From NCBI GenBank assembly GCA_965153455.1, contig OZ234493.1, positions 29,626,213-29,690,212 on the forward strand: a stretch of DNA of 64,000 nt, read 5' to 3'. The stretch is from Sphagnum compactum (Eukaryota). The translations under genes were made by a program, and so were the position numbers. The notes under the pieces were generated by a model that saw only the letters and a list, made by a program, of their open reading frames with translations, was not told the DNA's origin and ran no database searches. Each line of letters opens with the position of its first letter. Positions within the stretch are counted from its first letter, which is position 1. Positions 3,001 through 59,725 of the stretch are shown here, in pieces.

Positions 3001-3699
3001 ACAATGCAGAAAAAAAGGTTTTTGCATCTCATACCTAGTCATTACTAATGCAAAATTGAATTTGCTTATATTTTTAAACTTGTAATGCTTGATGCGATTT
3101 CAGAATGATGATCATTATATTGGATTTTAATTGATGATTTTATATGTTGCATCTTAATTGATAATCATCCTAATGATTTTCCATTCACCAATGACATTTC
3201 ATAGTTGAGTATCTTTCTAGATTCAGAATAACTTTGCTTTTCCTACAAAAGACATGATAAATATGTCATAATAAATTTTGTCTTTATTTTGGATTCGTAA
3301 TATCCTTACTTTCCAAGCAAAAGACTTGAGAAAATAGTAATAACGGCTCCATCTTTTCTGGGTTGAAACTTGAAATTAGCATATGCATGATTGCATGACA
3401 AAAAATACTATAGAAATTTTTAATAGGTTGCATGTCTAGGATCACTATTACATCATGTGAAAGAATTCAAAAATGATGAAAACCTACCAATTATTAATAA
3501 AACAAAGAACCCAACAAAGGGGGAAAAAAAGGTATAAGATGGAAGGACCCCAAGTGCTAACAAAATAAGAATACTCCAAAGAGGGCAAATCGCAAGGGGA
3601 ACGAGAAGAATCAAGTACTTGAACCTTCCCCCCCAATTGCAAGAAGCATATTAAATAAGGAGGGGAGGAACACCTAAAAGAATGCCTAGCTTAGACGAA

Positions 3700-6055
3700 C
3701 CTTCACTTATAATAATAACACACCTCAAAATAAAGGTTGCCTATGTTCGCTATGATGCCATTGACACCCTTTGCATGTAAAATGAAGGCAAAACTTTAAG
3801 AACATTGAAATAAGTTACTCTTACGTCCCGTTCCATTCCCCTTCCTAAGGTAGTTTCATTTTTCATACCTAGATTTTGTGAAAAGTTTTGCCATTACTTC
3901 TTCCACAATGCCCGTAAATGAAAGACTATAACTCAAATGTATTGGTGTAGCTTATGTCATTGGCCTGAATGTGAATTGGTTGATAAATATTGGAGGTTTT
4001 CAAAGACCATAAATGAAGAAAAAACTTTTAAAAAATCTTCATTCTAATATTCTATTTTTAGCATGTAGTAAAAAATATTTAAAAATGATTAAAGATTTGT
4101 ACTTCATATTTGGTTTTTAGCCAAATTTGGCTAAATCTTCTTAGGGACGATAGTTATTTTTATTACAAACAAAATTTTTTAAAAACGAATAATGACCATC
4201 ACAAACATAATATATATTGGCACCTTCACTTTTTAGGGTGAAACCTTTATTATAGAAACTCCACATATGCATCATACACCAAATTATAAATGAAATATAG
4301 CCAATATATGCATTGTTGGGGCATTTGGGCCAATAAACTAGGTTTTGGTAATGATCACATGATTCAATAGTTGAAATGGGTGTGTTCATTGCTCCATGTG
4401 CAAGTGTTCAAGAATTTTCACTAGTTTGTTGAAGCATACTTAATGCGACATTGGATAGCTTGTCATGATTTTTTATGTTTATGCTAATTGGAATGAATGT
4501 TTCACCTATTGATGAATGTGGTAAAAGTTCATGAAACATTACCCTACCATCCTCTTTTCTGCCATGAATTGTTGTGCTTTGTTTTGGCAAGACGTTGGTC
4601 AAGTTTTCTAGAACCTTGGAAACAAATGGTGAAACATCTTTAATGCCAAAACTTTCTATTGTATTTCCAATGACGTTTCTTACTTTCCCGACCAATACAA
4701 TGACAAAAAATGGAATGAATTTTCCTCAATATAGGACATAATATTGTTAGTCTAGGATTCACACTCTTGAAGTAGGATTGAACAATGAAATATAAGACTT
4801 AATTAAGCTCAATATGCAAGATCGGGATTCATAAAACAAAAGTGGAGTTGTAACCCAAGAATCCAATTCCTAACACAAGATTACATGTCTTAATAAAGAA
4901 TTGAGGATCCTAAATCATGGATCCAATTTTCTAAAAACTATTAGGTAGTAAATGTTCCTACAAAATCAAGGACTCATATTCCCAATTCAAAAGGATTTAA
5001 TTCATTTCCTTCCAAAATTTCCTATATTTTGGAAAATTATAAGGTCTTGTATTAAGACTTGTTAAGGATTCTACATTCTTGAAACCACACCTTGGTTCCC
5101 ACAAAAATTAGTGGTTTGACACCTCTTGTGACAAAAATTATGAAGGTGCACTAATTGATCTTGACGATGTGTATGTAAGAAATTCATTAAGGATGATATC
5201 GAAAAGGACATTAAGACTCAATGAAGTAGATTGATTCATGTGCATCAAGATTAAGGACTAAAAGAGAACAATGGAAAATTGATTGTTGAAGACGATAGAT
5301 TTTGAAACAAAACACACAAATGAATGGAAATAAATAACATAAACATATAGACAACAAAATGTATTCAAAAGTGTGTTTCACACATGTGAAAATGAAATGT
5401 CGGGTGTTTCCATTGGGAGTGATTGTACCATATTTGCTTATATTTTCATGCCCACCCTTCCTTGAACATCCTTGGAATCTAGTTTTAAACCCCAAGTTGC
5501 ACACCAATTTGTAATAAAGATGGCGTTACAAAAAGGAACAACACAATGGGATGAAGTTGTGTGTATTCTCCTATACACCAAATGTGATAAGCATGCTCGA
5601 CAGAGGTCGTCAATAAATTATTGCAATTAAATCACAATCCACAAAGATGACATGTGGGGTAGTTGCAAGATAGGGTGGCTCATTTTTTCATCACATTTGA
5701 TTTTTTACATATTGTATTCTATTCAAATGTCATAAACATATGGTGAAATCATCAATGTGACAAAAATATTTACAAATTAAAATTGCCAATTTGAATAAGA
5801 ATATGCACATAATCATGAAATTCAAAAAATAACACTAAACATATAGTCATGAACTTTCATTAAATTACTATAATTACAATAATTAATTTTTATTACTGTA
5901 AAAATATGAATAATTAATGTGAATATTTTGTAGTTTTGATAATTGTTAATTGTAAATAAGTAATTTTAAGTTATAAATAAAACAATTTACTATAATTGAA
6001 TTAATTGAATTACAATAAGTACACGAATTATTCATATTATAGTAAAATTATCATA
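3700..6055. repeat. Left copy of large inverted duplication (partner 32773-35465)
   Basis: Reverse complement matches 32773-35465 along its length. Mirrored ORFs: 4408..4695(-) vs 34109..34384(+), 5211..5507(-) vs 33348..33587(+), 4141..4389(-) vs 34438..34656(+). Confidence 0.95.
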
Positions 6056-7869
6056 AGAATTATAAATTTAAATTTAAATTACAATAATCAATATTACACA
6101 TTATGAATACAATTACATATTATATATTTTTACTGAATTTTTAGCAGTGTAAGAAAATTAATAATTAAGGTAAATTTTTATGTTGGACAAATAATTATTT
6201 ATTGTAAATAAATAATTATAAATAATAGATATATCAATTTTATAATAATGATGATAATTACAGTAATTACTCGAATTACCTTATGATTAATGTAAAAAGA
6301 TTAAATATGGATTTTAACTATACATTTTAAGTTATAAATAATTTGATTATTTATAATTATTTATAACTCTTTTTTTGGTAGTTAATTTAATTACAATAAC
6401 TCTATGATAATTATTGTACTTTTTTTTATACATCTATAGATCATTGATGTATTGCCACCTTTAGATATACCCTAATATGAGGCTAATATACAATAATAAT
6501 TTTTTCAAACCATGCCGAACTAATCTATGAAAATAATACATATATATACCATTATGAATGTGGAGTACATAATGTATACATAAGGCTTACTGTACATAAT
6601 TGTTAGTTACCATAACATAAAACACATGACTTACCCTATACAAAATTAGTAACATACATAACTTAATGTATAAATAACTAATTAGTTACCATTTCTTGGT
6701 CACTTTTGCAACTAATGGGCCATACAAAGGCCTTTTAAGATGAAAATAATGTGAATAGTTATCCCATTGGAAGAATGAAAAACCAATAAATAGTTGCAAC
6801 ATAGTCATAAATGTGACCAAAAAATGTGTGATATAATTTTCAATTGTAAATGTAACCAATTTTAGTTGTAAACGACAATTAGTCGCATGTAGTCACAAAT
6901 CATTTGGTTACGTTTTAGTCTTTTTCTACTAGTGACAATGTTTTTACTGATGGAAAGGTCCTTTCTTTTTTTGAACATTAGCTATCCATGTCCATATATA
7001 TATTCTCATGCATTGAAGTATATACAAAATTGGTGTTATTATATTTTTTCTCAATGCCAAATTTCTTTTCATAGGGAGTTGGGTGAAAGGTCGCATCTTG
7101 ATGTGAAAATGCTTTCTTGAATGTTGAATCATTTTTGCCCACCATCTATCATGGAACCTAGGATTTGAATGTTGATGAAAAATCATTAATTAATTTGATA
7201 GTTTTCAAAATCTAACTGTTTAGATCTTAGAAAAGAAAAGGAACCTATTTTCATCATTGTGGTTTTGTTAGTTTTGACAACCTTGATAAATATTTGTTTT
7301 TTAAAACTAGAACCATGCATTCCAATGTTTGTAGAGCATGGCACAGTGGTTGTTGTCACGCTTACTAATGAACATTTGCAATTGAGGGGTTGACATAGTA
7401 TGCAAGAGTGCCCAAAATTTGTTTTTTGCCTTTCAATTTGTAGTTGTAGTTAAGAAACGATCTCACTATGCACTTGCAACAAAGACATTAGTCCCAATAT
7501 CAATGTCATCCATTCACGTGTGATCTATCATTCATCATTATGTTTTGTGATTGACCAAAGTAGTTAAATATGGGACTTTCTTAGTTGACACACCACCTTG
7601 AGAGGCTTGACTATGGACTATGTAATTTTCCAAGTAAATGTTTCAATTAGAATTCAATTGTAGACCATGGGTGCTAAGAATATTCCATGAGCTCCAAAAT
7701 AATTGGGATTTGCCTTCATTTGTCCACCAAAAGAGTAGGCAGTTCAATTGACTTGGCAATTTTGAATAAATTTTTTAAATATTCAAAAAATTACAATTGA
7801 AACGTAGTTGAAGACAATTTCAAGTCGAAGGTGGGTTGGTTGAAAAAGAGGGGTTTTCTACTAGTGATT

Positions 7870-10800
7870 CAGTTGGTGATAGATGAAGGTAATTCTTTCA
7901 AATTGAAAGACCTTAACAAATTAAGTTCCTTGAATGCATTAAATTGGCCAATAAATGTAAGTAATTCCTACAAGCTCATACATTCCCACAATTAAAACTT
8001 TTGGATTGCATTTAATTGGCCAATGTACATGTAAGTAATTCTTGCAAGTTGAAGCATTCACACAAATCAAGATTTTCAAGTGCACTCAATGACTAATAGA
8101 TGAAAGTAGTTTTTTCAAGTTGTGACACCTTAACAAATGAAGCTTTTTTGGAATGTATTCAACTAGTCAATAAATGAAAATAATTATTTCAAGCTAAATC
8201 ACCTTAACAAATGAAGCACTTTGAGTGCATTCAATTCACCCCTAGATGAATGTATTTCTTTCACGATGTTTTCAAGTGGTAAAAATCTTATAAATAAAGA
8301 TTTGTAGTGCTTTCAATTCGCAAATAGATGAAAGTAGGTCTCTCAAGTTGCGACATTCGTACAAATAAAACTTTTGGAGTGCATTCAATTGGCCAATACA
8401 TAAATGTAATTATTTCAAATAGTAACACCTTAACAAATCAAGCTTTTGGATTGCATCCAATTAGCCAATACATGAAGGTACTTCTTTCAAGTTGGAACAC
8501 CCTAACAAATCAAGCTTTTGGATTGCATCCAATTAGCCAATACATGAAGGTACTTCTTTCAAGTTGGAACACCCTAACAAATCAAGCTTTTGGAGTGCAT
8601 TCAATTGACCAATAGATAAAGTTAGTTCTTTCATGTTCAAACACCCTAATAAAACAAGCTCTTGGAGTGCATTCAATTGGCCAATAGATGAAGATACTTC
8701 CTTCAAGTTCGAACATTTTCACAAATCAAGGTCTTGGAGTGCATTCAATTGGCCAATAGATGAAGGTAATTCTTTCAAGTTGGAACACCTCAACAAATCA
8801 AGCGTTTGAAATGCATTCAATTACCAATAGATGAAGGTAGTTCCTTCAAGTTTGAACACCCTGACAAATCAAGCTCTTGGATTCCATTCAATTGGTCAGT
8901 AGATGAACGTAGTTCTTTCAAGTTGGAACACTTCGACAAATCAATCTTTTGTAGTGCGTTCAATTGGCCAATAGATGAAGATACTTCCTTCAAGTTCAAA
9001 GATTTTCACAAATCAAGGTCTTGGAGTGCATTCAATTGGCCAATAGATGAAGGTAGTTCTTTCAAGCTGAAACACCCTAACAAATCAACCTCTTGAAGTG
9101 CATTCAATTGGCCAATAGATGAAGGTAGTTTTTTCAAATTAGAACACCTTGACAAAACAAGTTGTTGTAGTGCGTTTAATTGGCCAATAGATGAAGGTAA
9201 TTCTTTCAAGTTGGAACACCCTAACAAATCAAGCTCTTGGAGTGCATTCAATTGGCCAATAGATGAAGGCAGTTCTTTAAAATTGGAACACCTTCACAAA
9301 TCAAGCGTTTGGAGTGCGTTCAATTGGCTAATAGATGATGGTAGTTCTTTCAAGTTGGAACATTTCGACAAATCAAGCTCTTGGAGTGCGTTCAATTGCC
9401 CAATAGATGAAGGTAGTTCTTTCAAGTCGCAACACTCGGACAAATAAAACTTTTGGAGTGCGTCCAATTTGCCAATAGATGAAGGTAGTTCTTTCAAGTT
9501 GGAACACTTCGACAAATGAAGCTTTTGTAGTGCGTTCAATTGGCCAATAGATGATGGTAGTTCTTTCAAGTTGGAACATTTCGACAAATCAAACTCTTGG
9601 AGTGTGTTCAATTGGCCAATAGATGAAGGTAGTTCTTTCAAGTTGGAACATTTCGACAAATCAAGCTTTTGGAGTGCGTTCAATTGGCCAATAGATGAAG
9701 GTAGTTCTTTCAAGTTGGAACACCCCCCAAAATAAAGCTCTTGGAGTGCGTTCAATTGGCCAATAGATGAAGGTAGTTCTTTCAAATTGGAACAACTTAA
9801 CAAATGAAGCTTTTGGAGTGCGTTCAATTGGCCAATAGATGATGGTAGTTCTTTCAAGTTGGAACATTTCGACAAATCAAACTTTTGGAGTGCGTTCAAT
9901 TGGCCAATAGATGAAGGTAGTTCTTTCAAGTTAGAACACCCTGACAAATCAAGCTGTGAGAGTGCATTCAATTGGCCAATAGATGAAGGTAGTTGTTTCC
10001 AATTGTAACATCCCCGCAAATTAAGCTTTTGGAGTGCGTTCAAGTGGCCAATAGATGAAGGTAATTCTTTCAAATTGGAAGACCCTAACAAATCAAGTTT
10101 TAGGAGTGCGTTCAATTGGCCAATAGATGAAGGTAGTTCTTTCAAATTGGAACAATCCGATAAATGAAGCATTTGGAGTGCATTCAATTGGCCAATAGAT
10201 GAAGGTAGTTCTTTCAAGTTAGAACACCTCCCCAAACGAAGCTCTTGGAGTGCGTTCAATCGCCCAATAGATGAAGGTAGTTCTTTCAAATTGCAACACT
10301 TTGACAAATGAAGCTTTTGGAGTGCGTCCAATTGGCTAATAGATGAAGGTAGTTCTTTCAAATTGGAACACCCCCACAAACGAAGCTCTTGGAGTGCGTT
10401 CAATTGGCCAATAGATGAAGGTAGTTCTTTCAAGTTGGAACACCCCCACAAACGAAGCTCTTGGAGTGCGTTCAATTGGCCAATAGATGAAGGTAGTTCT
10501 TTCAAATTGGAATACCCCCACAAATGAAGCTTTTGGAGTGCGTTCAATTGCCCAATAGATATAGGTAGTTCTTTCAAGTTGGAACAATCCAACAAATGAA
10601 GCTCTTGGAATGCGTTCAATTGGCCAATAGATGAAGGTAGTTCTTTTAAGTAGGAACACCCTCGCAAATGAAGCTCTTGGAGTGCGTTCAATTGGCCAAT
10701 AGATGAAGGTAGTTCTTTCAAGTCGGAACACCCCCGCAAATTAAGCTCTTGGAGTGCGTTCAATTGGCCAATAGATGAAGATAGTTCTTTGAAATTGGAA

Positions 10801-12470
10801 AACTCCCAAAAATTAAGCTCTTGGAATGTGTTCAATTGGCCAATAGATGAAGGTAGTTCTTTCAAGTTGGAACACCCCCACAAACGAAGCTCTTGGAGTG
10901 CGTTCAATTGGCCAATAGATGAAGGTAGTTCTTTCAAGTTGGAACACCCCCACAAACGAAGCTCTTGGAGTGCGTTCAATTGGCCAATAGATGAAGGTAG
11001 TTCTTTCAAGTTGGAACACTCCGACAAATCAAGTTTTTGGAGTGCGTTCAATTGGCCAATATATGAAGGTAGTTCTTTCAAGTTGGAACATTCCGACAAA
11101 TAAAGCTCTTGGAGTGCGTTCAATTGGCCAATAGATGAAGGTAGTTCTTTCAAGTTGGAACACACCCCGAAATGAAGCTCTTGGAGTGCGTTCAATTGGC
11201 CAATAGATGAAGGTAGTTCTTTTTAGTTGGAACACTCCGACAAATCAAGTTTTTGGAGTGCGTTCAATTGGCCAATAGATGAAGGTAGTTATTTCAAGTT
11301 GGAACATTCCGACAAATAAAGCTCTTGGAGTGCGTTCAATTGGCCAATAGATGAAGGTAGTTCTTTCAAATTGAAACACCAATGCAAACGAAGCTGTTGG
11401 AGTGCGTTCAATTGGCCAATAGATGAAGGTAGTTCTTTGAAGTTCGAACACCATGTCAAATCAAGTTTTTGGAGTGCGTTCAATTGGCCAATAGATGAAG
11501 GTAGTTTTTTCAAATTGGAACCCCCCTCCAAACGAAGCTCTTGTAGTGCGTTCAATTGGCCAATAGATGAAGGTAGTTCTTTCAAGTTGGAACACCCCTC
11601 CAAACGAAGCTCTTGTAGTGCGTTCAATTGGCCAATAGATGAAGGTAGTTCTTTCAAATTGCAACACCAACGCAAACGAAGCTCTTGGAGTGCGTTCAAT
11701 TGGCCAATAGATGAAGGTAGTTCTTTCAAGTTGGAACACTCCGACAAATCAAGTTTTTGGAGTGCGTTCAATTGGCCAATAGATGAAGGTAGTTCTTTCA
11801 AGTTGGAACATTCCGACAAATAAAGCTCTTGGAGTGTGTTCAATTGGCATATAGATGAAGGTAATTCTTTCAAGTTGGAACACCCCCCCAAACGAAGCTT
11901 TTGGAGTGCGTTCAATTGGCCAATAGATGGAGGCAATTTCTGACAGCTCGACAAATCAAGTTGTTGGAGTGCATTTAATTGTCCAATAGATGAAGGTAGT
12001 TCTTTCAAATTGGAACACCCCCACAAATGAAGCTATTGGAGTGTGTTCAATTGGCGAATAGATGAAGGTAGTTCTTTCAAGTTGGAACACCATGACAAAT
12101 CAAGTTTTTTGAGTGCGTTCAATTGGCCAATAGATGAAGGTAGTTCTTTCAAGTTGGAACAGTTCGACAAATAAAGCTCTTGAAGTGCGTTCAATTGGCC
12201 AATAGATGAAGGTAGTTCTTTCAAGTCGGAACACCCCCGTAAATTAAGCTCTTGGAGTGCCTTTAATTGGCCAATACATGAAGTTAATTCTTTCAAGTTG
12301 AAACACCCCCACAAAGTAAGCTTTTGGAGTGCATTCAATTGGCCAATAGATGGAGGCAATTTTTTCAATTTCTGACAGCTCGACAAATCAAGCTCTTGGA
12401 GTGCATTTAATTGGCCAATAGATGAAGGTATTTCTTCCAAATTTTGGCATTGTGCCAAATCAAGTACTTG
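7870..12470 (-). repeat. Coding tandem array of ~64 x 72-bp LRR units (LQxLxLxxCSNLKELPSSIGQLNA)
   Basis: The + strand motif caattggccaatagatgaagg recurs every 72 nt from ~8390 to ~12412. One unit near 11940 is 63 nt. Degenerate units continue down to ~7880. Unit count is manual. Confidence 0.95.
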
Positions 12471-15400
12471 TATTTGTAAACAATTAAACAAATTATTTGG
12501 CAACTTTCGAATCATGTAGTTTTTGAAGCACAACCATTTAACCTTATTCAAATTTCTCCCTTGGATGCAATTTTCCACGATAGTTGGTGAAGCTTCTGTT
12601 AGGTCAAGCAACCTGAGGTTGCGAAATCCCTTTAAACTGATTTGAGACAATGTAGGCAACTCGACACATTTTTTCAATGAGATGCCTTCTAAATTCTCCA
12701 TCACCTATCACATGAAATGAAAACAAAAGGATTATCAATACAAAAAAACATTTCATCCTAGCGCCAAATTTATTAGAAAAGCTTGTATTTATAAAATCAA
12801 TATTCCAATTTAAAGCATTTGGTTTTGGACATCAAAAGAAATCATAGGATATCATAATAAAATTATGGATTGAAATAGTATGGTGACAACCTCATCCTTT
12901 TGTAAAAAGAAATTTGACATATTTGATTTCCATATAAATCGATTCATAATTGGAGGTTCCCTTGCAATATATTGACCCATGTCTTGTAATTGTTCATGTA
13001 TGTACAAGATTCCATCTTCTGCCCATTGGACTAAAGATCTATGTTGTAAATTTTGTAATTCAAACCTTGGGTATAAATAATCTCCACTCCACACTCGACA
13101 AATTGTACTTATTTTCAAACCACCCAAAAAACAAGCAATATCCAAAAACATGTTTTGATGTTGCTTATCCAAGTGGTCATAAGAAATTTTCAATACATTC
13201 CAAAGCTCTTCATTATCATTGCCCCCCGTGAGATTTTGCCCACTTTTCAATTTTCTTAATGCACCTTCCCAAATTTCCAATTCTTTAGTATTGCACAAAA
13301 AGGAACCTAATACTTTAAGACTTAAAGGGAGCCCCCCACATGCTTTTATAATCTTCATACATATATCTTTGAAATCCTTTCTTGGAACATGATTTGCATT
13401 ACCGAATGCATGGAACATAAATAGTTCCCTTGCTTGTTTTTCTTCCAAAGATTTCATGACCACTTTTCCATCTTCATTTACATGAGATTTCAAAATTTGC
13501 CAATTTCGACAATTCACAAGTACTTTGCTTTTAGGAGTTGCATTCTTGGTATCAATGAGAAGTTGCAAGGATGTAAGGTTGTCCACTTTACCAACATCAT
13601 CCACCACCACTAACACTTTTTCTGATATCATACATTGCCTAATCCGATCAAGGTCATCTTGATTCACATTTTTATCCTTGCATATCCCACACAAATCATG
13701 TAGGAGTTGTTTTATGACATCGTTGATATTCTCTTTTGATTTCACATCCTCCAAAAAACTAGATTTGTCATATTGGTTGTGGAACAAATGATAAATTTTT
13801 TTGCACAAAGTGGTTTTCCCAATCCCACCCATTCCAACCAAACCAACAATAGATTCCTTTTGTAACAAGATGTTTATGTCTTTTGCTTTGTCAATCAACG
13901 CCACCTCATGATATGGCAAACGTGGAAGCAATATATTTTTCTGTCAAAATTCACAAAATATAGGTCATTTATATGTTATCTTTTTTATTTGATAACCAAT
14001 ATATCTCACATTGCATATGCGATACGCATCAAGTGTGCTATGACCTAATGTGTATCAAATTACATGAACATATATGAAATCAAAAGATTTAAATTTGAAG
14101 TTTTTACCTCCATACATATTTTCAAACATTTTAACAATAAAGAATAACTTGGATGATATTTGTTTGGTGGCTTGCAAATTGTCAAGTGATTAGCATCCTC
14201 AATTTTGTAATGGTTGTTGTTTGACAATTGAATAGCTGAGGCATATGGCACTAAAATTCCCTGCATTTGCAAAAGATTAAGTTAATGGAACTCATTGACT
14301 TGTTTGTTCACTTAGGATTTAACTTATAAGTAATATAGTAATTCCAAATGGTGGTGGAAACTAAGTTTTATAACTATTGATGTTTGAATCATAATGAAAT
14401 ATTTTGTGTAAAAAAAATCCCTTCAACCTTTTGGCAAGCAAATTATATAAATACGTCACAAAGTTATTGGGTTTTAATCTCATTAATCTTACATGTTTTA
14501 ATGATGTTATGATTTTTCATACAAATATTTATATGGAATTGATTTCATGAACAGAAAATTTAAAACCTATTTCCTGATGTTTGAAATCAATCAAATTTCC
14601 TTTCCATCAATAATAATTCATGAAACAAAGTTCATAAAACACATGACCCATTCACCACATTAATATATTTAGAAGTATTGAGTCCTTGATCCCAGACAAG
14701 TTTTGACAATACAAAAAATGTTCAACTATTGAACCAAGTTGGATAACTTTCAATGTGGTGAAATGAAAATCTTACCCAATTCTCGTTGAGTGGTAATCCT
14801 TCGCCAAATGCATAAATGTTGAGGTTTTCACGAGCGGCATTTTTAAAATCCGTTGAAAGGTGCTCCATTTGTGGGTTGAAAGATTTTAAATTTAAAAAAA
14901 AACCAGATTAGGTTGCATACTTGTTCATTGTGTTGATTTGTTGATGTTGCCAAGTGAAATAATTTGATAAAAATTGGGTACCACTAGCATGTGGTACACT
15001 ATAAAATACTACACCTTTAACAGTGTTCAAAAATTTCTTACAACATTTGTGTACTTCATCATCCAAATCATTTCTTAGCCTTTGATGTTCGTGTTTCCAA
15101 GCTTCAACCACCAAGCTTTTGAGTACCAGACCTCCAAAACTATAAGCAACTAATGTCACTGGTCCATCCCAAAGGGATTGATAACTACAAAATATTCAAC
15201 AATGCACCAAAATTTTGTTATCAACATCGCATTAACATGTACAAATTTATCCTATTATATTTGGGGCAATTTTCCAATCTGCACATGACCTAAGCCATAA
15301 ATTCATAATTGATTTGTTCGTCATTTGTCATTTTTCATTTATCGACTCCACTAATCTACCTAAAAAATGTGACAACCATGTTTTGGTAAAACTATTATTA

Positions 15401-16223
15401 TGTACAAGTATGTAGGTGTTTACATTCTTGTGTTAATGTAGAACTCACCTTCTATGTGTTACCTTGGAAATATCGTTGAAATAAGAAGAAATTTGAATTA
15501 AAAAAAGATATACCTTATTTTGGAAATAATGTTTTTGCAATGAAATGGATGCAAATTTTCTACAGATGTATTCATTTAATTTAATTCAATTCAATAGCAT
15601 TACCAAAGATAAAGCTTCAAAAAATACGAATTAAAAATTGTCATGAAAACCAAACTAATTGTACCATGAACTTATAATATGAACATAGACTTTGCTATTA
15701 TCATCAAAGAAGAACATTTGCATTTTAGCACCATTTTCCGTTCTCCTACATGAATCTAACGATTCAAATAAATTGCAACTTGTTGGTGTGTATCACAATA
15801 CTAGCACACATGAACAATTAACTCATGCAAAACATTTAAGTATTTCTAAAGATGTAAACAATTATCTTTAATGTACACAAGGAGAAATAATTAATGTGTC
15901 CATAAATAGAGGAGATTGTCACACCTTGAATTTATAACCAAACTTTGAATGAGGTTTTTGCCAATTTCAGTCACATCATTGTGAACACTTGCCACAATGT
16001 TACAATCATAGGACAATGATAAAATTCGAACATTGTTGTTCAAGTCTTCGGGTAGCCACTTTTCTGGCCAACATATGCACTCTTCTATATTGTTGGTGGG
16101 GCGTGTTGTCCATGTTTCCTTCCATTCATCATTTGTGCCAAAAGCAATCCCATGAAAAAAAATAATGGTCAAGTTTGGATTATCGGAATTGCAAGTGGGA
16201 TTTAAATCATGCACTAGATATTT
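7870..16223 (-). pseudogene. alpha/beta-hydrolase-NB-ARC-LRR (HNL-type) immune receptor, disrupted
   Basis: GT-AG exons join in frame: 16223-15925, 15184-14776, 14260-14108, 13940-12891, 12704-~7870. Hydrolase motifs FFHGI, WPEKWLPEDL, RILSLSYD, AYSFGG, DANHLTICKP. NB-ARC motifs GMGGIGKTT, LVVVDDV, GGLPLSL, FLDIACF, IHEQL, followed by an LRR array. Stops at 14908-10, 12033-35, 11289-91, 11223-25, 9294-96 and 9006-08; 1-nt deletion near 8822. Confidence 0.93.
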
Positions 16224-17229
16224 CTGCAAAGAAAATGAAAATGGGTCAACACAATTCTTCAAACATCTCTTGAAAATTATTTGGCTATACATTAAATTAG
16301 AGAAATGCAATATACAAATTATAGTAGTTAGATAAAGGCAATAATTAATTGAAAAGATTAAGTTTAACAAGAAGACAATAGGAGATGAATTGGAGAATAC
16401 TGAATCTATCTTGCATGACTCACAAATGAAGGTCATTCACATGTGTCATAGACTTCAAAGTTTCAAAACATAGTTCAATAAGTAAATATTGTTGCATAGT
16501 AGGTGGAACTAATGCCAATCAATAAAGGTTAATGCTACGAATTGGATTCTTTCAAGTTTGGGTTGATTAACTAAACCATCTAGTTTGGTTCATTTGTATT
16601 TCATGACATTTTCCCCAACATTTGGGTCAATAAGGCTTCCAACTCCTAAGGAATTGGGACACGAACCCAATAAGAATGTCCAAGAGCATTTTAATAATTT
16701 GCTTTACGTTGTTGGATTAAGACTACACATTGAACTTAGCTCATAATAAAAGTTCCAATCCTTATAAGTTCAATATATTCTTAGTCAATGCCAATTGACA
16801 AATTTCCCTTTCACCAATTCTACTTGTTATAGCAAGTGTAAGAGGCTATAATGATGACCCCATTTCCTATTGTTTTGAACATCATTTCATATTGTTTTTA
16901 TCTAAACAAACAAACTGGAAAGTAGGCAAAGTGAAAATGTATGACAAGGAAGCTTGTAAATGATTGAGGACATTCAGGTACCCTAGTGGCTAAAGGGTAT
17001 GGTTGTGAAGCTGCTGGTTGGGAGTTCAAATCTGAACTAGACCTCTTTCTCCTGATGCTTTGTGAGGACAATAAGCTAACATGGTTGTAAGGGTCAGGGA
17101 AAATTTTCAACACACACCCAACAAAATTAAAAAAAACAAAGTACAATCAAACTTCAACATGTAACTTGGGAAAGCCCAAGAAAAAACTGTGCAAAGAAAG
17201 TTCATCATAAGATTAAGAAGAAGCACCAC

Positions 17230-17382
17230 ATTGCTGTGCCATCCAGAGCTTGAAGGAGCATTTTCAGCATGGACCAAAGGTGTCTCAATCGCAGCAGGGA
17301 AATGCACAACATCTCTCTTTCTTTTTGGTGGCCCTTGTGAAAGATCAACTCCTTTTCCCTTGAGGCCATCTGAACTTCCCAT
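17230..17382 (-). CDS. Candidate first coding exon of the HNL gene (MGSSDGLKGKGVDLSQGPPKRKR...)
   Basis: ATG at 17382 in a more GC-rich stretch upstream of the hydrolase exon, which starts at an acceptor and needs an upstream exon. Possible donor at AATGTG|GTGCTT. Connectivity is unproven. Confidence 0.35.
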
Positions 17383-30578: not shown

Positions 30579-31294
30579 TCAGGATTGTGTTGGAGTCTCC
30601 ACAGTGAGAGGGCAGTTGAAAGCTTCAAAGCCGAATTGTTGTACAAAGCAATCGATAAGCTGGTCTGTGACCACCGCTTGCCCTTGCAGCGGATGGGAGG
30701 AAGAGAGTTCCTTGCTGAGAGACGTGACCTCCTTATCGGCGATTCCACAAGGAACGATGTGTTGGAAGAACCTCAAATCCGGAGCTATGTTAAACGCCAA
30801 ACCGTGTGAAGTGATGCTGCCAGAGGAGACTCTGACGCCCACAGCACCGATCTTCTTCCTGTTGTCCGATACCCAAACCCCTGTCTCCTTCACTATTCTT
30901 CCTCTGGCGGTGATGCCATAGAGATGGCACAGTCGGATCATGGTGTCTTCCAAGCCTTCCACGTACTTGCGAACCCCGAGCTTCAAGTTTCTTAGAGACA
31001 GGATAGGATACAGGACTGCCTGGCCCGGGCCGTGGAACGTGATGTCGCCTCCTCTCTCAGTCTGGTGAATCTCGGCTCCCATGCTCCTCACAACGTCAGG
31101 CGTCGACAGAAGGTTGTGTAGCGTCCGACGCTTGCCGACTGTGAAAGTTGGAGGTGCTGCAAACACAAGAGCGTGTCGCAAATCGTGCCTACTCGCCGCT
31201 TCTCTACTAGCTCATTCTGAAGCACAAGTGCCGCTGCGTATTTCACTACTCCCATTCTCCAGATCTCCAATCTCCTCCCTCTCGATGTTGCCAT
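30579..31294 (-). pseudogene. LIP2: Octanoyltransferase LipB/LIP2, intronless, one frameshift
   Basis: ATG at 31294 gives LEIWRMGVVKY...DTLLCLQH in one frame. PPTFTVGKRR...RGGDITFHGPGQAVLYPI...KIGAVGV...TSHGLAFN...IVPCG is in another frame. One base is missing at ~31154 (CAC-CT-CCA). Confidence 0.88.
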
Positions 31295-31429
31295 CAATCT
31301 TTTCCTCAGGTTTCCAAGCTTTTTTCTTCTTCTCGCATGCACATGTTTTTTGTAGCCAACATGTGCACTGCATGAACTATACAGTTTTCGTCCATTCAGA
31401 ACATGGTTCCACAACTTCTCATCTCCATT

Positions 31430-32618
31430 GACAAGAGGATTCTGCTGTGGCTCTTGAACTCCTGAGTAGGTTATGTTTGGTAACTGATCGAGGTCGTCAA
31501 TTACTGGAAATACCTTTGATGCTCTGTGCCCTGGGCTATTTCCAGCAACCGACCACCTCTTGCTCTCCCAGTTGTTTTTGTGGGCTTGTGCCCCCACCCA
31601 ATGGTGTTCGCAAGCATGGACTCTTTCTGGCGGAAGGTAGCAGATGCTCTTTAGGATCTTGGACCTGACCCTGGGGATGCACTCTGCTTGTCACAGGAGT
31701 CTCCATCAGGTCTTACCAATCTTGGGGCCACCTGCTACGTGAACAATGTTCGGCAGTGCCTTTACATGAACAGGTATGCTTTTCAGCTCCTTAAATTAGT
31801 GTGGATAGGTCTCTCTGTTTGTTCTCTGTCTGCTGTGCCCATTGAGTGCTAGCTGACATCATGACTTAGGCTTGCTGTTGCTTTGGTTAGTTTGGAAGGG
31901 TTTGGTTTTGTAATTTGTCTGTTTTCTGACATGCCATTGGATCTGAAACTTCTATAACTGTACTATTCTGTGATCTCTAAATTTTTCTCGGGTTCGACAT
32001 AACTATGGAGAAAAAAGAGTATATAGGAGGGATCCAGCAAAGCATTGTGGTGATGTAGTTGTTTATGCTTTCCCCCCAGCACCCCCAAGTTAGTCCAGTA
32101 ATCCAGGGCCTTTTCATGGCATAAAACCCTCCAGATTGTAGCTACCAAGAATGGCAAATTTGTGTTGAAACTTTGCTAGTACCTGCCCTGTGTTCATTAG
32201 ATAACATGTTCAGGCATTGACCTCTCTACTTTTAACATATTATGTTGGAATTAGTAATTTTTGAACATGAGAGAAAAGATATAGGTGGAAGGATGTGCTA
32301 GCTGAGTGAAAGTGCATTGGTGAACAGGGCATTTCATACAGGTGTTTTTGCTGCAGAGGTTGAGTTGATGAATTGGCAGCCAGCACTGTACCAGCTAGGC
32401 CTCTTTTTTGCACAGTTGCATTCTGGGAAGAAGATGGCTGTGGGTTCAGCTCCCTTTGCAAGCACATTGGAGCTTGATAATGCAGTACAGCAGGATGGTC
32501 AGGAGTTTCTGAAGCTGCTACTTACATTACTGGAGAGAGTGCTTGCAACATTGGATTGTTTATTGGCTCAAAATGTTGTACAAAATGTGTTTCGTGGCAC
32601 CTTTTGCTATGTCATTAA
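31430..32618 (+). pseudogene. UBP26: Ubiquitin-specific protease UBP26-like 5' fragment (2 exons)
   Basis: CFCGLVPPPNGVRKHGL, frameshift at ~31625, TAG at 31652-54, then LGPDP and the Cys-box [21 protein letters not shown]. Intron 31774-32327. Exon 2 reads LFFAQLHSGK...LELDNAVQQDGQEFLKLLLTLLE to a donor after 32618. No further exons found. Confidence 0.88.
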
Positions 32619-38350: not shown

Positions 38351-40611
38351 CACTACTTTGCAAATCTATTATCCTTTTGAGTTTTTTTTAAAAAATTTGT
38401 GAGAGGGAGCAACAGGGAGGAATTGGATGCAAGTAATGTATGCAATGTTTTGATTTATATTGTGATGGTGATCAAGTGTAGGTCATACTTATGTCCTCTT
38501 TGTTGACATTTAGAATTTTTAACCCAAATAACCAACCTAGATGCCATATTTGAAGGTTCTCAATCAGGTTATGAAAAAATTGCCCCATATGCATAATCGG
38601 ATTGGGTGATCCTAGGTAGGTTATTGCAAAAATTGGCCCTTCCGCATATCCAGCAGTTAATAATTCATAAAAAAAATGAACATTGATATCCTGGTGTGCT
38701 GGCCTTGCGCAGATTTTTAATCTTTTTTAAGGCGCGTTCTGGAATATTGATACCAGGTTGATCCAAAAAATCTAGAAAAAAAAGAACATTGATACCCTGC
38801 GTGTAAGTCAAATTTCAAAATTTTGCAAGAACTGCCCCCACCTAGTATTGAAAAAAACCAATATCCGGACAACACTGGTCCTAACTCTAGGTGAAGTGCT
38901 CTAGCTTAACAAAGTGCCAACTTGTCTTCCTTGACTAGGGGATAGTAAGATCCAATAGATGTTGGTTTTGTTTGCTCTCTTGTTCTCCATTTGTACCCCA
39001 ACGAGCATCTTGCCATCGCCTTAGGGGTTTAGGCTTGGAGCCAGTGCTAAGGACTATTTTTCTTATATCCCAAGCTGTTTGATTTGCCATGAGGGCAAGT
39101 GTTGTTTTTGCACTTGCCAAAATCTACCAGGAGGGGATTGCACAATCACTTGTGACACAAGAACATAGCCTCAAAGTTTGCAATGATTTTTTGCGAATCT
39201 GCCAATGCTGGCTGGCTTGTACTGTTGTGATAAAATGCACAGCAAAGAATTTTCAAAGTTTGCAATGATGTCTTCCAATCTGCCAATGCTTGCTGGTCCC
39301 TACAGTTGCCATTAAAAGCACTAAGAAAGATTTTCAAATTGGTTGGCAATGTTCACAATGAAACCTTCAAAACTCCCCGAAATGACCTCACAATCATTTC
39401 CACAATGTTCCGTGGAATTGTTAAGGACAAAGAACACGCAATTTCTAAATTGTGGAAAGAAAAGAACCATCTAAGTAGCTATCCTACTTCCGTTGTGGCA
39501 TATGTACCAAAAAAAGTTGTCTTGGGCAACAAGTTCCTCCTTGTGAATATAAAAAGTTACACATGCTCTAGCGTGGTCACAAGGGAACCTCCATGTTGCT
39601 GGCCGGAGTGAACCAACAGCCGACCTACAAACGGATGGCAGGATGGATGTGCGGACGCAGAACACTCTGTTCATTGCATTATTGTCTCATAGCTAACCAT
39701 ATTGGTCAGCTATATATGTACATCCACACCAAGTGCCTTACAGACATAGTTTGGTTATGACTCAGTTCATCCACACCTGAGTAATAATAGATTGCCAATG
39801 GATGCTGTACTGGAGGGTTGCTAGTAAGAGCATCTCCACCAATGTTCAGTATGTGACCCTGCAAAAATATTTCTCACATCCAAGTTTTAGTTACTAGGTA
39901 ACTAGTTTCCAACTCCACCCACAAAACTGAAACTGGGACTGCAAGTAGGTGGGAGACTACTGGTAGCAACCCGCTCGGACCAATCAAACTATCTACCCAA
40001 TCAGAAACAGGGAGCAGTCAATAAATACGATTTGACTGTGTTTATTACACTGTTCGAGGGCTCTGGAAAGCTCTGCATTTTCTCAGGGTCCCGGCAATCT
40101 TTCAGTGGATTCACTGGGTTTAGAACTCTATGTCTTTTGCCGTGCACTGCAAATGGCAATACGGCGTGTTTTGACTTTTCATACATTTATGGGCTTGATC
40201 TTTGATCTTCAAGGCTCAACCTTTTTCCAAAGCTTTCCAAATTTTCAACATTGGAATATTTTCTGAAGCCTCACAACCCTTTTTTGCCAAAGCTTCTGCC
40301 CAATTTTCAAAGGTTGAAATTCTTTTCTTTTTTGGGGAACTTTAATGTCGAGCAGCTTGAAGTCTCGTCGAGTTTTTCCCAATATCTTCATATAAAAAAT
40401 CATTCTTCGGGATTCTCCTATTTCTCAATTATTTTATGCTGAAGTTGGTTCCTGGCGGTGTCTCTTTGGAGAATCCTGTGTTGAGGGCTTCAAGTTTCAA
40501 CAACTCCTGCACCGCATAGACCATAAAAGTCTTGGACTGGACCAATTTTCTGTCAACTAAATAGCAGAAATCGTTTGTGAGAGGGGATCTATGCGAAGAA
40601 GTAGCTCTTGT

Positions 40612-40664: not shown

Positions 40665-41279
40665 AGGGATACGGAGAAAGGTTCGTGGTGGGAGAATTTT
40701 GATCTTCTTAGAGGAGGAGCAAAACCGACAATTTTGTTCCTCAAGTTGTGGGGATTGTCATACACAAAACTGAATAAATTGCGGCCGTCTCTGTAGCAGT
40801 GGTGGGTTAGGTGCTTCTGGGAGGAAGCTCACTTTCTTTTTAGACTCGTGTGATTGTTGCTTTGCTGATTAAGGTTTCTCACTTTTTGGTTTTCATCAGG
40901 CTATACAAGGAGCCGCCTTCTGAAGATCTGGAGCGGATGAACCTGGAATTCTATAGTCTTTTTTTGTTTCCCTGTTGTTCTTGAATGTTTGTATTGGATC
41001 TGCATCCGAGGAAAGTGGGAGCGGAGGAGGAGGGGAGACGAACCCTATACGTAAATTTGGGTTAGCCTCTGGAATAGTCGGTAGAGATCAAGGTGCAGAT
41101 TTGTATTCTCCTCCGAGCTAGTCCTGGACTCCGGATTCTGTTGAGAGCCTTGTTAGGATTGTAGTCATATGGGTGGATTACCTTAGTTTGGATCAGAGTG
41201 AGCTCTAAGGGTTGAAAGACACGAATTCGAGAGCGTTCCGGATTCAAAGGGCTTTGAAAGCATCCAGGGGAGCTCATCA

Positions 41280-44200
41280 ATGATGGGGAAGCTTTACATG
41301 ACAGGCAAAAGAATGGCAAGGTTCCAAATTTTGGCGCTTGTGTTTGCTATGGTAGCATCGTCGGCGTTGGGAGCCTTTCTAATCGAAGAGAACAGCATCA
41401 CCGTGACCTCTCCTGATAGTTTGAAGGGAACTTACCAAAGCTCAATTGGGAATTTTGGAGTGCCGCAGTATGGAGGCACCCTAGCAGGAACGGTGTTATA
41501 CTTGAAAGATAAGCCAAAGGGTTGTGATCCTTTTGAAGATAGAACCTTTAAAGCAAACAGCGGCGGTCGTCCAGTCTTCGCTCTTGTGGATCGTGGAGGT
41601 TTGTTTTTCTTTGACACTTCGTTTCTGTTTGTTGTTTGTATGACCTTTCTGTTGGAATTTCTACTAGTCTTTCAGAGTTCACTCAAAGTGCTGTAATTGA
41701 GTTTGGCAGATTGTTATTTCACGACCAAGGTGTACCATGCACAGCAAGCAGGTGCAGCAGCAGTGTTGGTTGCAGACAGCAGGACAGAGAGTCTCGTCAC
41801 CATGGATTCACCTGAAGAGAATCCCAGTACAGCAAAGGAAGTTGAGGATATCAACATCCCATCCGCTCTCATCACGAAAGACTTTGGTGACAAGTTGAAG
41901 AGTGCTCTTGAGCACAAGGAATTGGTCAACATGAAACTTGATTGGCGGGAATCACTCCCACACCCAGATGAGCGTGTTGAATATGAATTCTGGACTAACA
42001 GCAATGACGAATGTGGTCCTAAATGCGACGCACAAATTGAATTTGTGAGAAGCTTTAAAGGTGTTGCTCAGATTTTGGAGCGGGGTCAGTACACACTTTT
42101 CACTCCGCATTACATAACATGGTATTGCCCAAAGGCTTTTGTCGAGAGCAAGCAGTGTAAATCACAGTGCATTAACAATGGCCGGTACTGTGCTCCTGAC
42201 CCTGAGCAAGATTTCAACATTGGATATGATGGGAAGCAAGTGGTGACAGAGAATTTGCGGCAACTCTGTGTTTTCAAAGTTGCCACACAGTTGACGACAC
42301 CCAGACCATGGGTATGGTGGGATTATGTCACTGATTTCCAGATTCGTTGCCCAATGAAAGAGAAGAAATATGGGCCAGAGTGTGCAGAGCAAGTTATCAC
42401 CTCATTATGTACGTTTCTTCCTTTCAATACATACAACAGGTTTTCCTGACACTGTATTGTGGAAGTTAAAAGTCCCTTTTTGGTGAGGTTTTGTGTCTGC
42501 TCGTTCAGAATGGGAATTAGACTTGAATGCTAAGAAAGCCAATTTTGATTATGAAATTTTGCTGTGGGATTGCAGCATTGAATCCTTCAGATATCCGTGA
42601 ATGTATGGGCGATCTGACAGTTGATGAAGATAATCCAATTCTAAAAGCAGAGCAAGAGGCACAGGTTGGTTCCTTTCCTTTACTCTTGGAAACTCTCCAC
42701 AGTGATACTTTACAGTATGCTTGCTGTGGTTTCCAACATCATTCTAATACAGATTTGTCCCGATAATAAAAAGCCTTCTAATCTAGCAACTTTCCAAGAA
42801 AAGACATGACAATTGCATATTGGAGCGAGTTTTCTCCTGGCATGTTTTTGCTGCAACAAAGTAACCTTGTGGGCTATGTGCTGGGATCGAAGGAGGAGAT
42901 TAGAATTGAAATTACAGTACAATTGGTGTCAAAAATGCAGTTGATTGCATCACCTAATCCCTTAGACGGTAGAATGCTACAATTATTATATATACTATAA
43001 GGAAATAAAATCCTGCTATGCCACTATGGCCTTATTACTGTTGGTCTGGAGAATGCCTAGAAACCTGTGCAACTACAGATGATATTAAAAACTATGCTCA
43101 GCCTGTCGATGAGATTCATGGATATTGTAACAAGACCTGTATTGTTGATGGCACTCACCAATATGATATTCTCGGTACAGTTCTGCAGTTCTTCCTGTCT
43201 GTATGATGGTGAAGCATCATGCATTGATGTTCATTTTGGTTAGGGCATTGACAAATCTGTGTTTGGCTGTCAGGTTGGGAAAGGTGATCGTGGTGATGTC
43301 ACCATTTTGCCAACACTTGTCATCAACCAACGGCAGTACCGAGGTTGGTGTGATTTCGGCCCTTCATCTTGTTTACCAGGTGTTGCAATGACAAAATGCA
43401 AGCATGAAATGGGCATGAAGGCTGACCAAGAAAGTTTCTGATTTTCAGAGTCTAACATATTCAAACTAATACAACCTAAACCTGACATCACCTATCCTGA
43501 TATAGCTGCACAGAACCAAATTCTAAGTAGTACGTACCTTTCTGTATAATTTGGTCTTGCAGGAAAGCTGGAGAAGGCAGCCGTGACTAAGGCTATCTGT
43601 TCAGGTTACAAGGAGACCACAGACCCACCCGTGTGTTTAAGTCAAGGTAATCATCATCAAACTTATCCTCTTGATATGTTTGAACCTTGCATGCAAAGTT
43701 CTCATCTTGAAGAAATTCACAATGTCAATGTACAATCGCTGCTAGTGGATGTATAGTGTTATGTGTAATAAAACGCAAAATTGTCTTTTTCTCCTTTTCC
43801 CACCTGGATATTCCTTATTTCCCTGGTATTGAATAAAACCATGCAATGAAACAGAAAAGTTGGAATCTAGGGTCTTTTGACAGGAGTCTTTCCTTGAGAT
43901 TTTGCAGCTGTTGAGACAAATGAATGCCTCAGCAACAATGGTGGATGCTGGCACAAGGGTAATATTACAGCATGCAAGGTACAATGACACCTTCTCATCT
44001 GTCCCAACTCCTGAAACAGCCATTCAACAGACTTGGGCAGGCAGTTGCTGCAACTGAATAGTGACACTGGAATTTGGTTATTTGGTTGCTGAGTTCACGT
44101 GCAACATATTTGTGTGTCACTGTAAAAGTAGTTGTTGTAGAACTTGAACTCAAGATTTTCAGAATAGGGGGAGTTCTGGACTACCAAACAGACTGAGATG

Positions 44201-58877: not shown

Positions 58878-59725
58878 TGTTAATAGACAAAGTATATACT
58901 TTTAGAAAAACATGTACATAAGAATCTCATTATTCTTATGCATGCATGTTCAAACTATACACAATCTATAGATTCGAATTCAAAAGATAATAAGACAAAT
59001 TTATGAATGTTATTGCAAATGAACAAGAATACAAAAGATTCAAACTCGTCTTCTTAAATAGGCTAAATGATTTTTACTAGTAATTAAAATAATTACCTAA
59101 CTAAGTAGGAATTAATAACTAGTTAGTTAACATTCATCCAAATTCTAATTTAGCACATACAAAAATCAAATATGTACTCAATACATGGTAACATCTAACT
59201 AACAAGATAACTATGGATTATGATTTAACACTTAAAAAAATCAAATTTGTACTTAATATATGTTAACATTTGATTAATAAGATAAATACAAATTATGACT
59301 TAACATTTTAAAAATAAAATATGTATTTAATATGCCTTAACATCTAATTAACAAGGTAACTATAGGTTAATCTTATATATAATTACATACATGGTGTCTG
59401 TCCGTGCGTGCGTCTGTCCGTTTTTACCTTTTCGAAATTACCTAATTTAACTAAGTTACTTTTTACTGCCGCAGTTATTACTGAGCGGCAGCGGGGGGGG
59501 GGGGGGGGGGGGGGCAGCAAGGGGGGGGACGGGCGGGAAAGGACCGGACGGGGGAGTGAAAGGAGGTGTTTTTTTTTTTTTTTCGTTTTTTTTGGGTCCT
59601 CCCTCCTTTTCTTGGGGGTGGCTGGAGTGGCGTAGCCACGGGTTACCAACCACTCGTACTTATAAAGGCCAGATCTATGTTTACTACATGTTAAAGACTA
59701 TAGATTAATGTTTATAGGGTTAACA
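58878..59725. mobile_element. Solo-LTR-like insertion splitting the Gypsy RT
   Basis: Begins TGTTAA and ends TTAACA. Flanks ggact/tgacc form a degenerate 5-bp TSD. The RT reading ICMD..KLNVTTKKD resumes across it. Contains three ~76-bp tandem units (59160-59370). Confidence 0.72.
59371..59656 (+). mobile_element. Short non-autonomous Helitron-like element
   Basis: Sits between A and T with no TSD. Starts TC (tcttatatataa), has a subterminal hairpin gtggc-gta-gccac, and ends ctcg. GC-rich with poly-G in an AT-rich host. Confidence 0.7.

Follow-up and report, generated by a model that had tools for sequence, protein, structure and literature searches.

Does the moss Sphagnum compactum encode, within a single gene, a working receptor that carries some 64 near-identical leucine-rich repeats (LRRs)? 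This question is raised by a stretch of 64,000 nucleotides (hereafter the window) from GenBank assembly GCA_965153455.1 (contig OZ234493.1, forward-strand positions 29,626,213 to 29,690,212), in which an initial annotation had described about 64 tandem units of 72 bp at window positions 7870-12470 and proposed them as the sensor of a recombination-diversified receptor. In plants, the nucleotide-binding receptors with leucine-rich repeats (NLRs) usually have few and divergent LRRs. Our analysis indicates, with high probability, that the array is the LRR-encoding last exon of a pseudogenised hydrolase-NLR (Hyd-NLR), which belongs to a large, recently expanded Sphagnum family with minisatellite-like 72-bp LRR arrays.

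We aligned the array to its unit consensus by dynamic programming and obtained 64 units on the minus strand, from 12464 down to 7863, in agreement with the number, length and position given before. Tandem Repeats Finder reported a period of 72, with 57.6 copies, 85% matches and no indels, at 8302-12440. On minus-strand translation, the units share a scaffold of 24 residues, LxLxxCSNLKELPSSIGQLNALQx, whose near-fixed state was confirmed for units 0-56, units 57-63 being degenerate. The high homogenisation described before amounts to a mean pairwise identity of 84.7% at the nucleotide level and 73.8% at the amino acid level over 56 units (84.6% at the nucleotide level over units 0-56), and only three pairs of units are identical (10 and 20, 21 and 28, 54 and 55). 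Nucleotide identity between units declines weakly with spacing (0.859 for units at offset 1, 0.838 for those at offset 30), and recurring blocks are short, of two or three units, with no long higher-order block repeated. Unique sequence borders both ends of the array. A repeat scan of the rest of the 64-kb window found no second comparable array; two small unrelated tandem repeats are located at 39171-39338 (81 bp x 2.1) and 59140-59364 (75 bp x 3.0).

The gene to which the array belongs was reconstructed from the exons upstream on the same strand, which are listed with the array segments in Table 1. A Pfam search with the open reading frame (ORF) at 12852-13943 identified an NB-ARC domain (E=9.1e-33) and a WHD_ROQ1 domain (E=5.6e-12). 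The three exons further upstream were found by tblastn to be 68-94% identical to the N-termini of two Sphagnum proteins, P0123 from S. tenellum and P0124, a S. compactum paralogue. The frame of the first of these, exon A, stays open upstream to an ATG at 16436, which is the annotated start in S. fallax and S. tenellum. Neither the ORF at 15891-16436 nor the window's own hydrolase exons gave a Pfam match; P0124 matches DUF676, a putative serine esterase, with 22.4 bits (cutoff 20.3), and P0123 scores 19.0 bits, under the cutoff. Two features of plant NLRs are present, an NB-ARC domain with a P-loop and C-terminal LRRs joined to it in the same gene across a GT..AG intron. The assignment to the Hyd-NLR class follows from the NB-ARC and WHD_ROQ1 matches upstream on the same strand, the exon-wise tblastn similarity, the DUF676 match of P0124 and the Sphagnum homologues. 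As far as sequence comparison goes, the architecture is hydrolase-NB-ARC-LRR of the Hyd-NLR (or HNL) class, with the hydrolase domain putative. The class is listed for Sphagnum in the part of Chia et al. (2024; PMC11218826) that was consulted.

The exon boundaries were compared with RNA contigs from the runs X1, X2, X15 and X16 placed on 12400-16450, which are unitigs of ~100 nt with at least 94% identity that stem from many paralogues. A joint 12702->12889 (cut +2) falls at the intron between the NB-ARC and LRR exons and was found in the metatranscriptome runs X15 and X16, in one contig each (side 21). Further joints were placed at 15186->15928, 13942->14112 and 14258/14261->14789/14780.

Table 1. 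Features of the Hyd-NLR locus in window coordinates
Feature	Coordinates	Strand	Evidence and remarks
Possible first coding exon (MGSSDGLKGKG...WHSNV)	17212..17382	-	solely tblastn similarity to P0124 residues 1-57, 75% identity
Hydrolase exon A (KYLVHDLNP...FFHGIAFG...SLVINS)	15928..16223	-	tblastn, 93% to P0123, 79% to P0124
Hydrolase exon B, AYSFGG serine-elbow motif	14776..15186	-	tblastn to Sphagnum proteins; TAA inside
Hydrolase exon C (GILVPYASAIQLSNNNHYKIEDANHLTICKPP...)	14108..14260	-	tblastn, 94% to P0124
NB-ARC and winged-helix exon	12891..13940	-	open; P-loop GMGGIGKT
Intron between NB-ARC and LRR exons, 186 nt, GT..AG	12705..12890	-	junction KDEVV/ENLEGISLKKC (slash at the splice point) as in P0124
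Non-repetitive start of LRR exon (ENLEGISLKKC...NLFNCLQIQV)	12465..12704	-	71% identity to P0124 residues 693-800
LRR units 0-5	12033..12464	-	sole units ahead of first in-frame stop (TAG 12035-12033)
LRR units 6-50	8803..12032	-	frame unchanged; 9 nt missing from unit 7
LRR units 51-56	8371..8802	-	one-base shift; additional stops
Degenerate LRR units 57-63	7863..8370	-	50-55 of 72 bases match consensus; 1-, 2- and 11-nt indels; several stops

The reading frame of this gene is broken in two exons. In hydrolase exon B, the codon at 14910-14908 is a TAA stop in place of the Gln of the relatives (KYAT*SGF compared to KYATQSGF by tblastn). In the array, the frame of unit 0 contains five stops, at 12035 (TAG), 11291 (TAA), 11225 (TAA), 9296 (TGA) and 9008 (TGA), all of them inside the first 50 units and representing all three stop codons; counted from the array start of Tandem Repeats Finder (12440), the first is reached after 5.6 units. 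Unit 50 (8873-8803) carries a 1-nt deletion, additional stops are located in units 52, 54, 55, 56, 58, 59 and 62, and additional indels in units 57-61. With a stop in the hydrolase exon, five stops in the array and a frameshift, the window gene cannot encode a 64-LRR receptor, and it lacks the intact reading frame by which a functional plant NLR is recognised. These lesions speak against a working receptor at this locus, and the window copy, as read from the assembly, is a pseudogene, a relic rather than a working 64-LRR receptor. Some of the stops were themselves duplicated: one is common to the identical units 54 and 55, and another to units 48 and 52, which lie in two pairs (47-48 and 51-52) that are mutual nearest neighbours. 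Since stop-bearing units were duplicated, the array must have gone on changing after the frame was lost, in the manner of a neutral minisatellite.

If the stops and the frameshift were assembly or sequencing errors, the locus could encode a working giant receptor of ~50-64 LRRs, and several observations are in line with this. An ORF of 642 aa, the longest in the array, remains at 9294-11222 on the minus strand, matches Pfam LRR_14 with E=2.2e-107, and was modelled as a regular LRR solenoid (see below); the scaffold is well preserved in units 0-56; relatives have arrays open over 38-55 units; and the exons are covered by the RNA contigs described above. However, the indels and six or more independent changes to TAA, TAG or TGA, spread over two exons, would all have to be errors, and one such stop occurs in two identical adjacent units and another in two units that lie four apart. 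An early stop followed by a long tail is also found in related arrays from independent assemblies, and the annotations of the nearest relatives in two other species lack LRRs, as described in the following paragraphs. We therefore consider a working receptor at this locus very improbable, and proceed with the window copy as a pseudogene. Three other long ORFs in the array, at 10672-11103 (+), 11320-11823 (+) and 10336-10740 (-), were rejected as genes, being side effects of the periodic sequence that repeat SAFNWPIDEGSSFK and ERTTFIYWPIERTP; those on the plus strand are mirror frames of the repeat.

The homologues of the NB-ARC exon place the gene in a large Sphagnum family. At E<=0.001 we found 2057 homologues comparable in length, with a best identity of 92%, and a further 4152 that are longer. 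The named closest matches, with identities of up to 93% overall, all come from Sphagnum (S. balticum, S. jensenii, S. compactum, S. fallax, S. tenellum and S. troendelagicum), so that the attribution to a non-flowering plant, made before from the letters, proved correct for every named closest relative. The nearest annotated relatives are P0122 (S. fallax BDL97_08G041700, 672 aa) and P0123 (723 aa), with 93% and 91% identity, respectively. In both annotations the NB-ARC exon is read through into the intron (...KDEVVTIPFQSYNFIMIL), and no LRR is included. Annotated paralogues of 637-2000 aa contain 0-23 units with the scaffold of the window, and among 75 longer matches (P0121-P0195) there are 25 proteins of 650-902 aa, most of them of 650-756 aa, without LRRs. 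A search with the LRR ORF against proteins of 1125-3210 aa yielded a metagenome ORF of 1205 aa consisting of LRRs only, and no Sphagnum family protein above 1350 aa among the best 120 matches. Annotation may systematically truncate the LRR exons of the Sphagnum Hyd-NLR family or miss them. Moss NB-ARC ORFs are also misannotated in Joint Genome Institute (JGI) metagenomes of peat and moss, under automatic names of bacterial style such as 'energy-coupling factor transporter ATP-binding protein EcfA2' or 'nucleoside-triphosphatase THEP1'.

To place the window array within the family, we used 80 loci on metagenome contigs, with an NB-ARC 79-94% identical to that of the window. A 72-bp array follows the NB-ARC in 68 of the 80 loci, beginning ~450 nt past the NB-ARC match; in the other 12, the contig remaining after the match is at most 553 nt long. 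At least 10 copies are present in 58 loci (range 11.5-80.6). Seven redundant loci (L006, L007, L021, L039, L041, L050 and L076) were left out, L007 being only ~93-97% identical to the L004 that was kept, and 51 were retained, in 44 of which a stop is reached inside the contig and in 7 the contig end comes first. Among the 44 arrays, the median number of units ahead of the first stop is 15.9, and eight arrays have at least 30: L033 (54.6), L010 (48.8), L004 (48.4), L068 (40.0), L045 (38.6), L057 (38.2), L026 (36.5) and L042 (34.5). In seven of the 44, the frame stays open until at most two units before the array end (16-40 units). Of the loci whose arrays are long or fully open, 15 were checked, and all 15 have an NB-ARC match that is free of stops and contains a P-loop. 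In 21 of the 44 arrays, at least 10 units (10-62) lie past the first in-frame stop, for example in L010, L013, L031, L052, L066, L072 and L032. Shorter coding arrays followed by an untranslated repeat tail appear to recur regularly in the family, and the window array, with 5.6 units followed by 51.9, stands at the decayed extreme, alongside L052, L066, L072 and L032.

These loci also bear on the possibility that the length of the window array is an assembly artefact, produced when a shorter repeat is over-expanded or mis-joined. With units of 72 bp and 85% identity, assembly is difficult, and the limited match of the window to sequencing reads, given below, would be consistent with such an artefact. 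Nevertheless, arrays of 52-81 copies are present in 10 family loci from independent metagenome assemblies, and pairs of contigs from different samples are 99.8-100% identical across whole arrays. In the window itself, the 64 units are distinct apart from the three identical pairs, the largest repeated block comprises 3 units, and the flanks are unique. An artefact of this kind is consequently hard to credit, and we take the length of the array as real in what follows.

Among the 80 loci we found no true orthologue for the window array. The top whole-gene identities to the window are those of L060 (92.1%, on a contig that stops within the NB-ARC), L002 (91.5%) and L001 (90.5%). L001 has the most similar NB-ARC (94% at the amino acid level), and its array at 3583-5376 is dominated by another unit type (LDLNGCCNLKEL...), in which positions 7-8 are variable too; the variable residues of the L001 and window arrays are not colinear. 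In the 10 arrays measured, the window among them, amino acid identity between units is 68-79%.

Turnover of whole units in the family was assessed from the clustering of units and from closely related pairs of loci. We took 885 units from 20 arrays and asked whether the nearest neighbour of each belongs to its own array; this is so for 55% of them when all 72 nt are compared and for 34% when the 54 scaffold nt are compared, against an expectation of 5.4%. L027 and L030 (98.1% identity) differ by 144 nt or 2 units, L058 and L063 (96.6%) by 217 nt or 3 units, L018 and L035 (90.9%) by 433 nt or 6 units, and L033 and L035 (91.6%) by 2952 nt or 41 units; L004 and L007 (97.4%) are separated by four exact 72-nt gaps, two per copy. 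From the multiples of 72 nt in close pairs and the clustering of units by array, we infer that whole units are gained, lost and copied, and recombination-driven repeat turnover in the Sphagnum Hyd-NLR family is supported by these comparisons of contigs. The shuffling or conversion of units that had been foreseen thus finds backing at the level of the family; as a means of diversifying a receptor at the window locus, it does not, the gene being dead.

The model that we propose from these results is as follows. Whole 72-bp units would be gained, lost and copied via unequal recombination, slippage or conversion, and each array would drift to its own unit types as its units turn over. The structural scaffold CSNLKELPSSIGQLNALQ is retained, while residues at or next to the β-strand (positions 24, 2, 4 and 5, in the family also 7 and 8) vary. 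Intact members would probably be receptors of 16 to ~55 LRRs with differing binding surfaces. In the window copy, the frame has been lost, both by a stop in the hydrolase exon and at several points of the array, and unit duplication continued afterwards.

The positions at which the units vary were determined in the window array and compared with a predicted fold. In 57 window units, positions 2, 4 and 5 have amino acid entropies of 2.27, 2.65 and 2.62 bits, ahead of position 24 with 1.86 bits and position 7 with 1.30 bits, and none of the remaining 19 positions exceeds 0.85 bits. The codons at positions 2, 4 and 5 have a nonsynonymous diversity of 0.47, compared to 0.074 for the 20 codons outside positions 2, 4, 5 and 24. 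An AlphaFold2 model of the 642-aa ORF, computed from the single sequence, has a predicted local distance difference test (pLDDT) score of 92 and a predicted template modelling score (pTM) of 0.81. Every 24 residues it forms a strand of five residues, comprising unit positions 24, 1, 2, 3 and 4, and a short helix. Foldseek matches to this model are LRR solenoids only, for example GSO1, SHOC2 and Leptospira LIC proteins. The regular LRR solenoid expected for the array was thus recovered, and the placement of variation in xLxLxx, on the face of the β-sheet, is borne out by the entropy together with the position of the strand: in the model, the variation of the window array is concentrated on or just past the predicted β-strand, at positions 2, 4, 5 and 24.

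The variable residues had further been called code-like and compared to the repeats of transcription activator-like effectors (TALEs). We counted 39 distinct combinations of residues at positions 24, 2, 4 and 5 over 56 strands, and 32 triplets over 57 units, which is no small set of types, and a TALE-like residue code was rejected on this ground. The position pairs 2-4 and 4-5 co-vary above shuffles (the observed value was reached by 0 of 1000), as would be expected if unit types spread through duplication. The Sphagnum arrays resemble TALE repeats in being long arrays of near-identical units with few variable residues each, but differ from them in fold and in the absence of a small residue code, with no sign of unit-by-unit ligand reading.

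In the family, the 885 pooled units of 20 arrays have entropy peaks at positions 2, 4, 5, 7, 8 and 24; positions 2, 4, 5 and 24 reach at least 1.0 bit in every one of the 20 arrays, and 7 and 8 are lower in some. Within arrays, the ratio of nonsynonymous to synonymous diversity (piN/piS) ranges over the 20 arrays from 0.63 to 3.8 at positions 2, 4 and 5 and from 0.14 to 0.78 in the scaffold. Five colinear pairs of loci, with L035 used in two of them, were compared codon by codon for the proportions of nonsynonymous and synonymous differences (pN and pS). At positions 2, 4 and 5, pN is 0.094 and pS 0.081, a ratio of 1.16 that does not differ from 1 (Fisher p=0.62), and in the scaffold pN is 0.024 and pS 0.055, a ratio of 0.44. 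The pN at these x positions is 1.7-fold above the scaffold pS (Fisher p=1e-4; p=0.025 without the pair that reuses L035). An excess of nonsynonymous change at the x positions, as had been anticipated, is thus seen relative to the synonymous rate of the scaffold, although a pN/pS of 1.16 is by itself no proof of positive selection. These values suggest diversifying selection at the x positions of the family arrays.

A neutral origin of the pattern has to be weighed here, in which unequal crossing-over in a minisatellite-like exon is combined with relaxed constraint at exposed residues and no adaptive diversification takes place. The ratio at positions 2, 4 and 5 and the broad range of piN/piS among arrays are compatible with it, as are the long dead tails of 21 of the 44 arrays, the many arrays that stop early, the continued duplication of dead units and the equal unit numbers of near-identical copies. 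Neutrality accounts less readily for a pN at the x positions above the scaffold synonymous rate, for the same six positions being the most variable across the 20 pooled arrays over a scaffold held by purifying selection, and for open arrays of 38-55 units adjoining stop-free NB-ARC exons, which are unexpected without selection for long open arrays. We regard the neutral account as possible, if rather unlikely, and adaptive diversification of recognition in the family as the reading that the substitution patterns suggest.

Several observations weigh against our interpretation of the locus and the family. The best sequencing run contains 0.48 of the sampled words of the window, and it is the assembly on which the stops and the length of the array are based. 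Each stop is a single-base substitution, and that none is a sequencing error is something we infer. RNA contigs of at least 94% identity lie across the exons, so that transcription may take place at the locus or at a close relative of it, with a truncated product as a possibility. The scaffold of the dead window units keeps a piN/piS of 0.48, which would mean that function was lost recently or that live copies are refreshing the units via conversion. For comparison we used metagenome contigs, in which arrays are open to mis-assembly and pairs may be alleles, orthologues or paralogues. Finally, unit numbers are equal in the five pairs that are at least 99.8% identical (L019/L021, L044/L050, L034/L039, L008/L076 and L005/L041), and turnover is therefore not fast at that scale.

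Two other genes were identified elsewhere in the window. In the ORF at 30579-31690 on the minus strand, Pfam recognises LplA-B_cat, the catalytic domain of lipoyl protein ligases A/B (E=2.3e-32), and the gene looks like an ordinary housekeeping neighbour. Pfam matches to VSR_TRX (E=4.7e-70) and the PA domain (E=1.2e-10) mark exons of a vacuolar sorting receptor at 41202-42449 on the plus strand.

We compared the Sphagnum arrays with the repeat-bearing NLRs of fungi, namely the WD40 proteins HET-E, HET-D and NWD and also the ankyrin (ANK) and tetratricopeptide (TPR) repeat types. For fungal NLRs with internally conserved repeats, the sections consulted of Dyrka et al. (2014; PMC4986451) apply a criterion of >85% repeat identity, and those of Ament-Velasquez et al. 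(2025; PMC12222747) find high repeat conservation mostly in fungi and bacteria, with a single LRR case, in the sea urchin. The same sections describe variation focused on the surface, polymorphism of repeat number, possible concerted evolution and many inactive alleles (PMC4986451, PMC12222747). The Sphagnum family is similar in that a NOD-type receptor has a C-terminal sensor of tandem similar repeats, with variation at few surface positions, differences in copy number, likeness within arrays and many inactive copies. In contrast to the fungal WD40, ANK and TPR proteins, however, its repeats are 24-aa LRRs and its host is a plant. In comparison with the fungal high-internal-conservation (HIC) class, with its repeat identity above 85%, the Sphagnum units have lower amino acid identity, both in the 10 arrays measured and in the window; selection at the x positions is suggestive only, given the pN/pS obtained; and the copies compared may not be alleles. 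It is conceivable, although on balance doubtful, that the Sphagnum Hyd-NLRs are a plant counterpart of the fungal repeat-diversified NLRs, with arrays of 72-bp cassettes remade into new lengths and surfaces (16 to ~55 LRRs) by unequal exchange and conversion, both inside an array and from one array to another, and with tails and dead copies serving as unit reservoirs.

Near-identical repeats in the LRR region of a plant NLR have a precedent in rice, where the allelic BED-NLRs Xa1/Xo1 carry 4-7 nearly identical repeats of 93 aa, according to the consulted sections of PMC7748017. On that description, the two systems share a plant NLR in whose LRR region near-identical repeats stand in tandem, and a varying copy number, among alleles in rice. 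They differ in the unit, which comprises several LRRs in Xa1, in 4-7 copies, and a single 24-aa LRR in Sphagnum, with up to ~55 coding and 81 total copies, as well as in the N-terminal domain, zfBED in Xa1/Xo1 and a hydrolase in Sphagnum, and in lineage. In the comparison offered by Ectocarpus, ROCO LRR and NB-ARC-TPR genes are described as showing exon shuffling and diversifying selection on repeats, in the part of Zambounis et al. (2012; PMC3341825) that was covered. These too are candidate immune receptors of a non-flowering lineage with a repeat domain made of interchangeable modules, but on the same account each Ectocarpus exon holds one repeat, whereas all Sphagnum units lie in one uninterrupted exon. 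Given this single exon, turnover in Sphagnum would be unequal exchange within the exon and not exon shuffling.

Variation of LRR copy number through intragenic unequal exchange is reportedly also found in tomato Cf-2/Cf-5 and Arabidopsis RPP5. Cf arrays are said to have ~25-38 LRRs, and the Cf proteins to be extracellular receptor-like proteins rather than NLRs; we know of no long untranslated tails in Cf-2/Cf-5 or RPP5 arrays. These systems share with the Sphagnum arrays very similar 24-residue LRRs, hypervariable solvent-exposed xxLxLxx residues and differing LRR numbers, whereas the Sphagnum receptors differ from the Cf proteins in being NLRs, with longer arrays and long untranslated tails. 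The bryophyte HNL class was reportedly described by Xue and colleagues in 2012. With HNL or Hyd-NLR proteins, whose occurrence in Sphagnum is recorded in the part of PMC11218826 that was read, the family shares an α/β-hydrolase-like N-terminus followed by NB-ARC and then LRRs. The main text of that paper, as far as it was covered and with its supplements outside the scope, does not describe the repeat structure, size or turnover of the LRR array.

No description of the Sphagnum 72-bp LRR arrays was found in the literature searched, subscription journals and supplements being outside its reach. Within that literature, the Sphagnum family is new in three respects: the repeated unit is a single LRR, there are up to ~55 coding and ~81 total units, and long untranslated tails are present. 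The mechanism put forward by the initial annotation is plausible for the family, and no receptor works in that way at the window locus. Receptor evolution by near-identical repeats would be extended to land plants and to LRRs by a moss NLR family in which up to ~55 copies of one 24-residue LRR are coding. In this family, residues that the model places on the concave face are variable, and unit numbers differ among close copies. Such a family would likewise account for the fact that, among the best matches listed, annotated Sphagnum proteins end at 23 units or fewer, or lack LRRs, and censuses of Sphagnum NLRs would then be underestimates.

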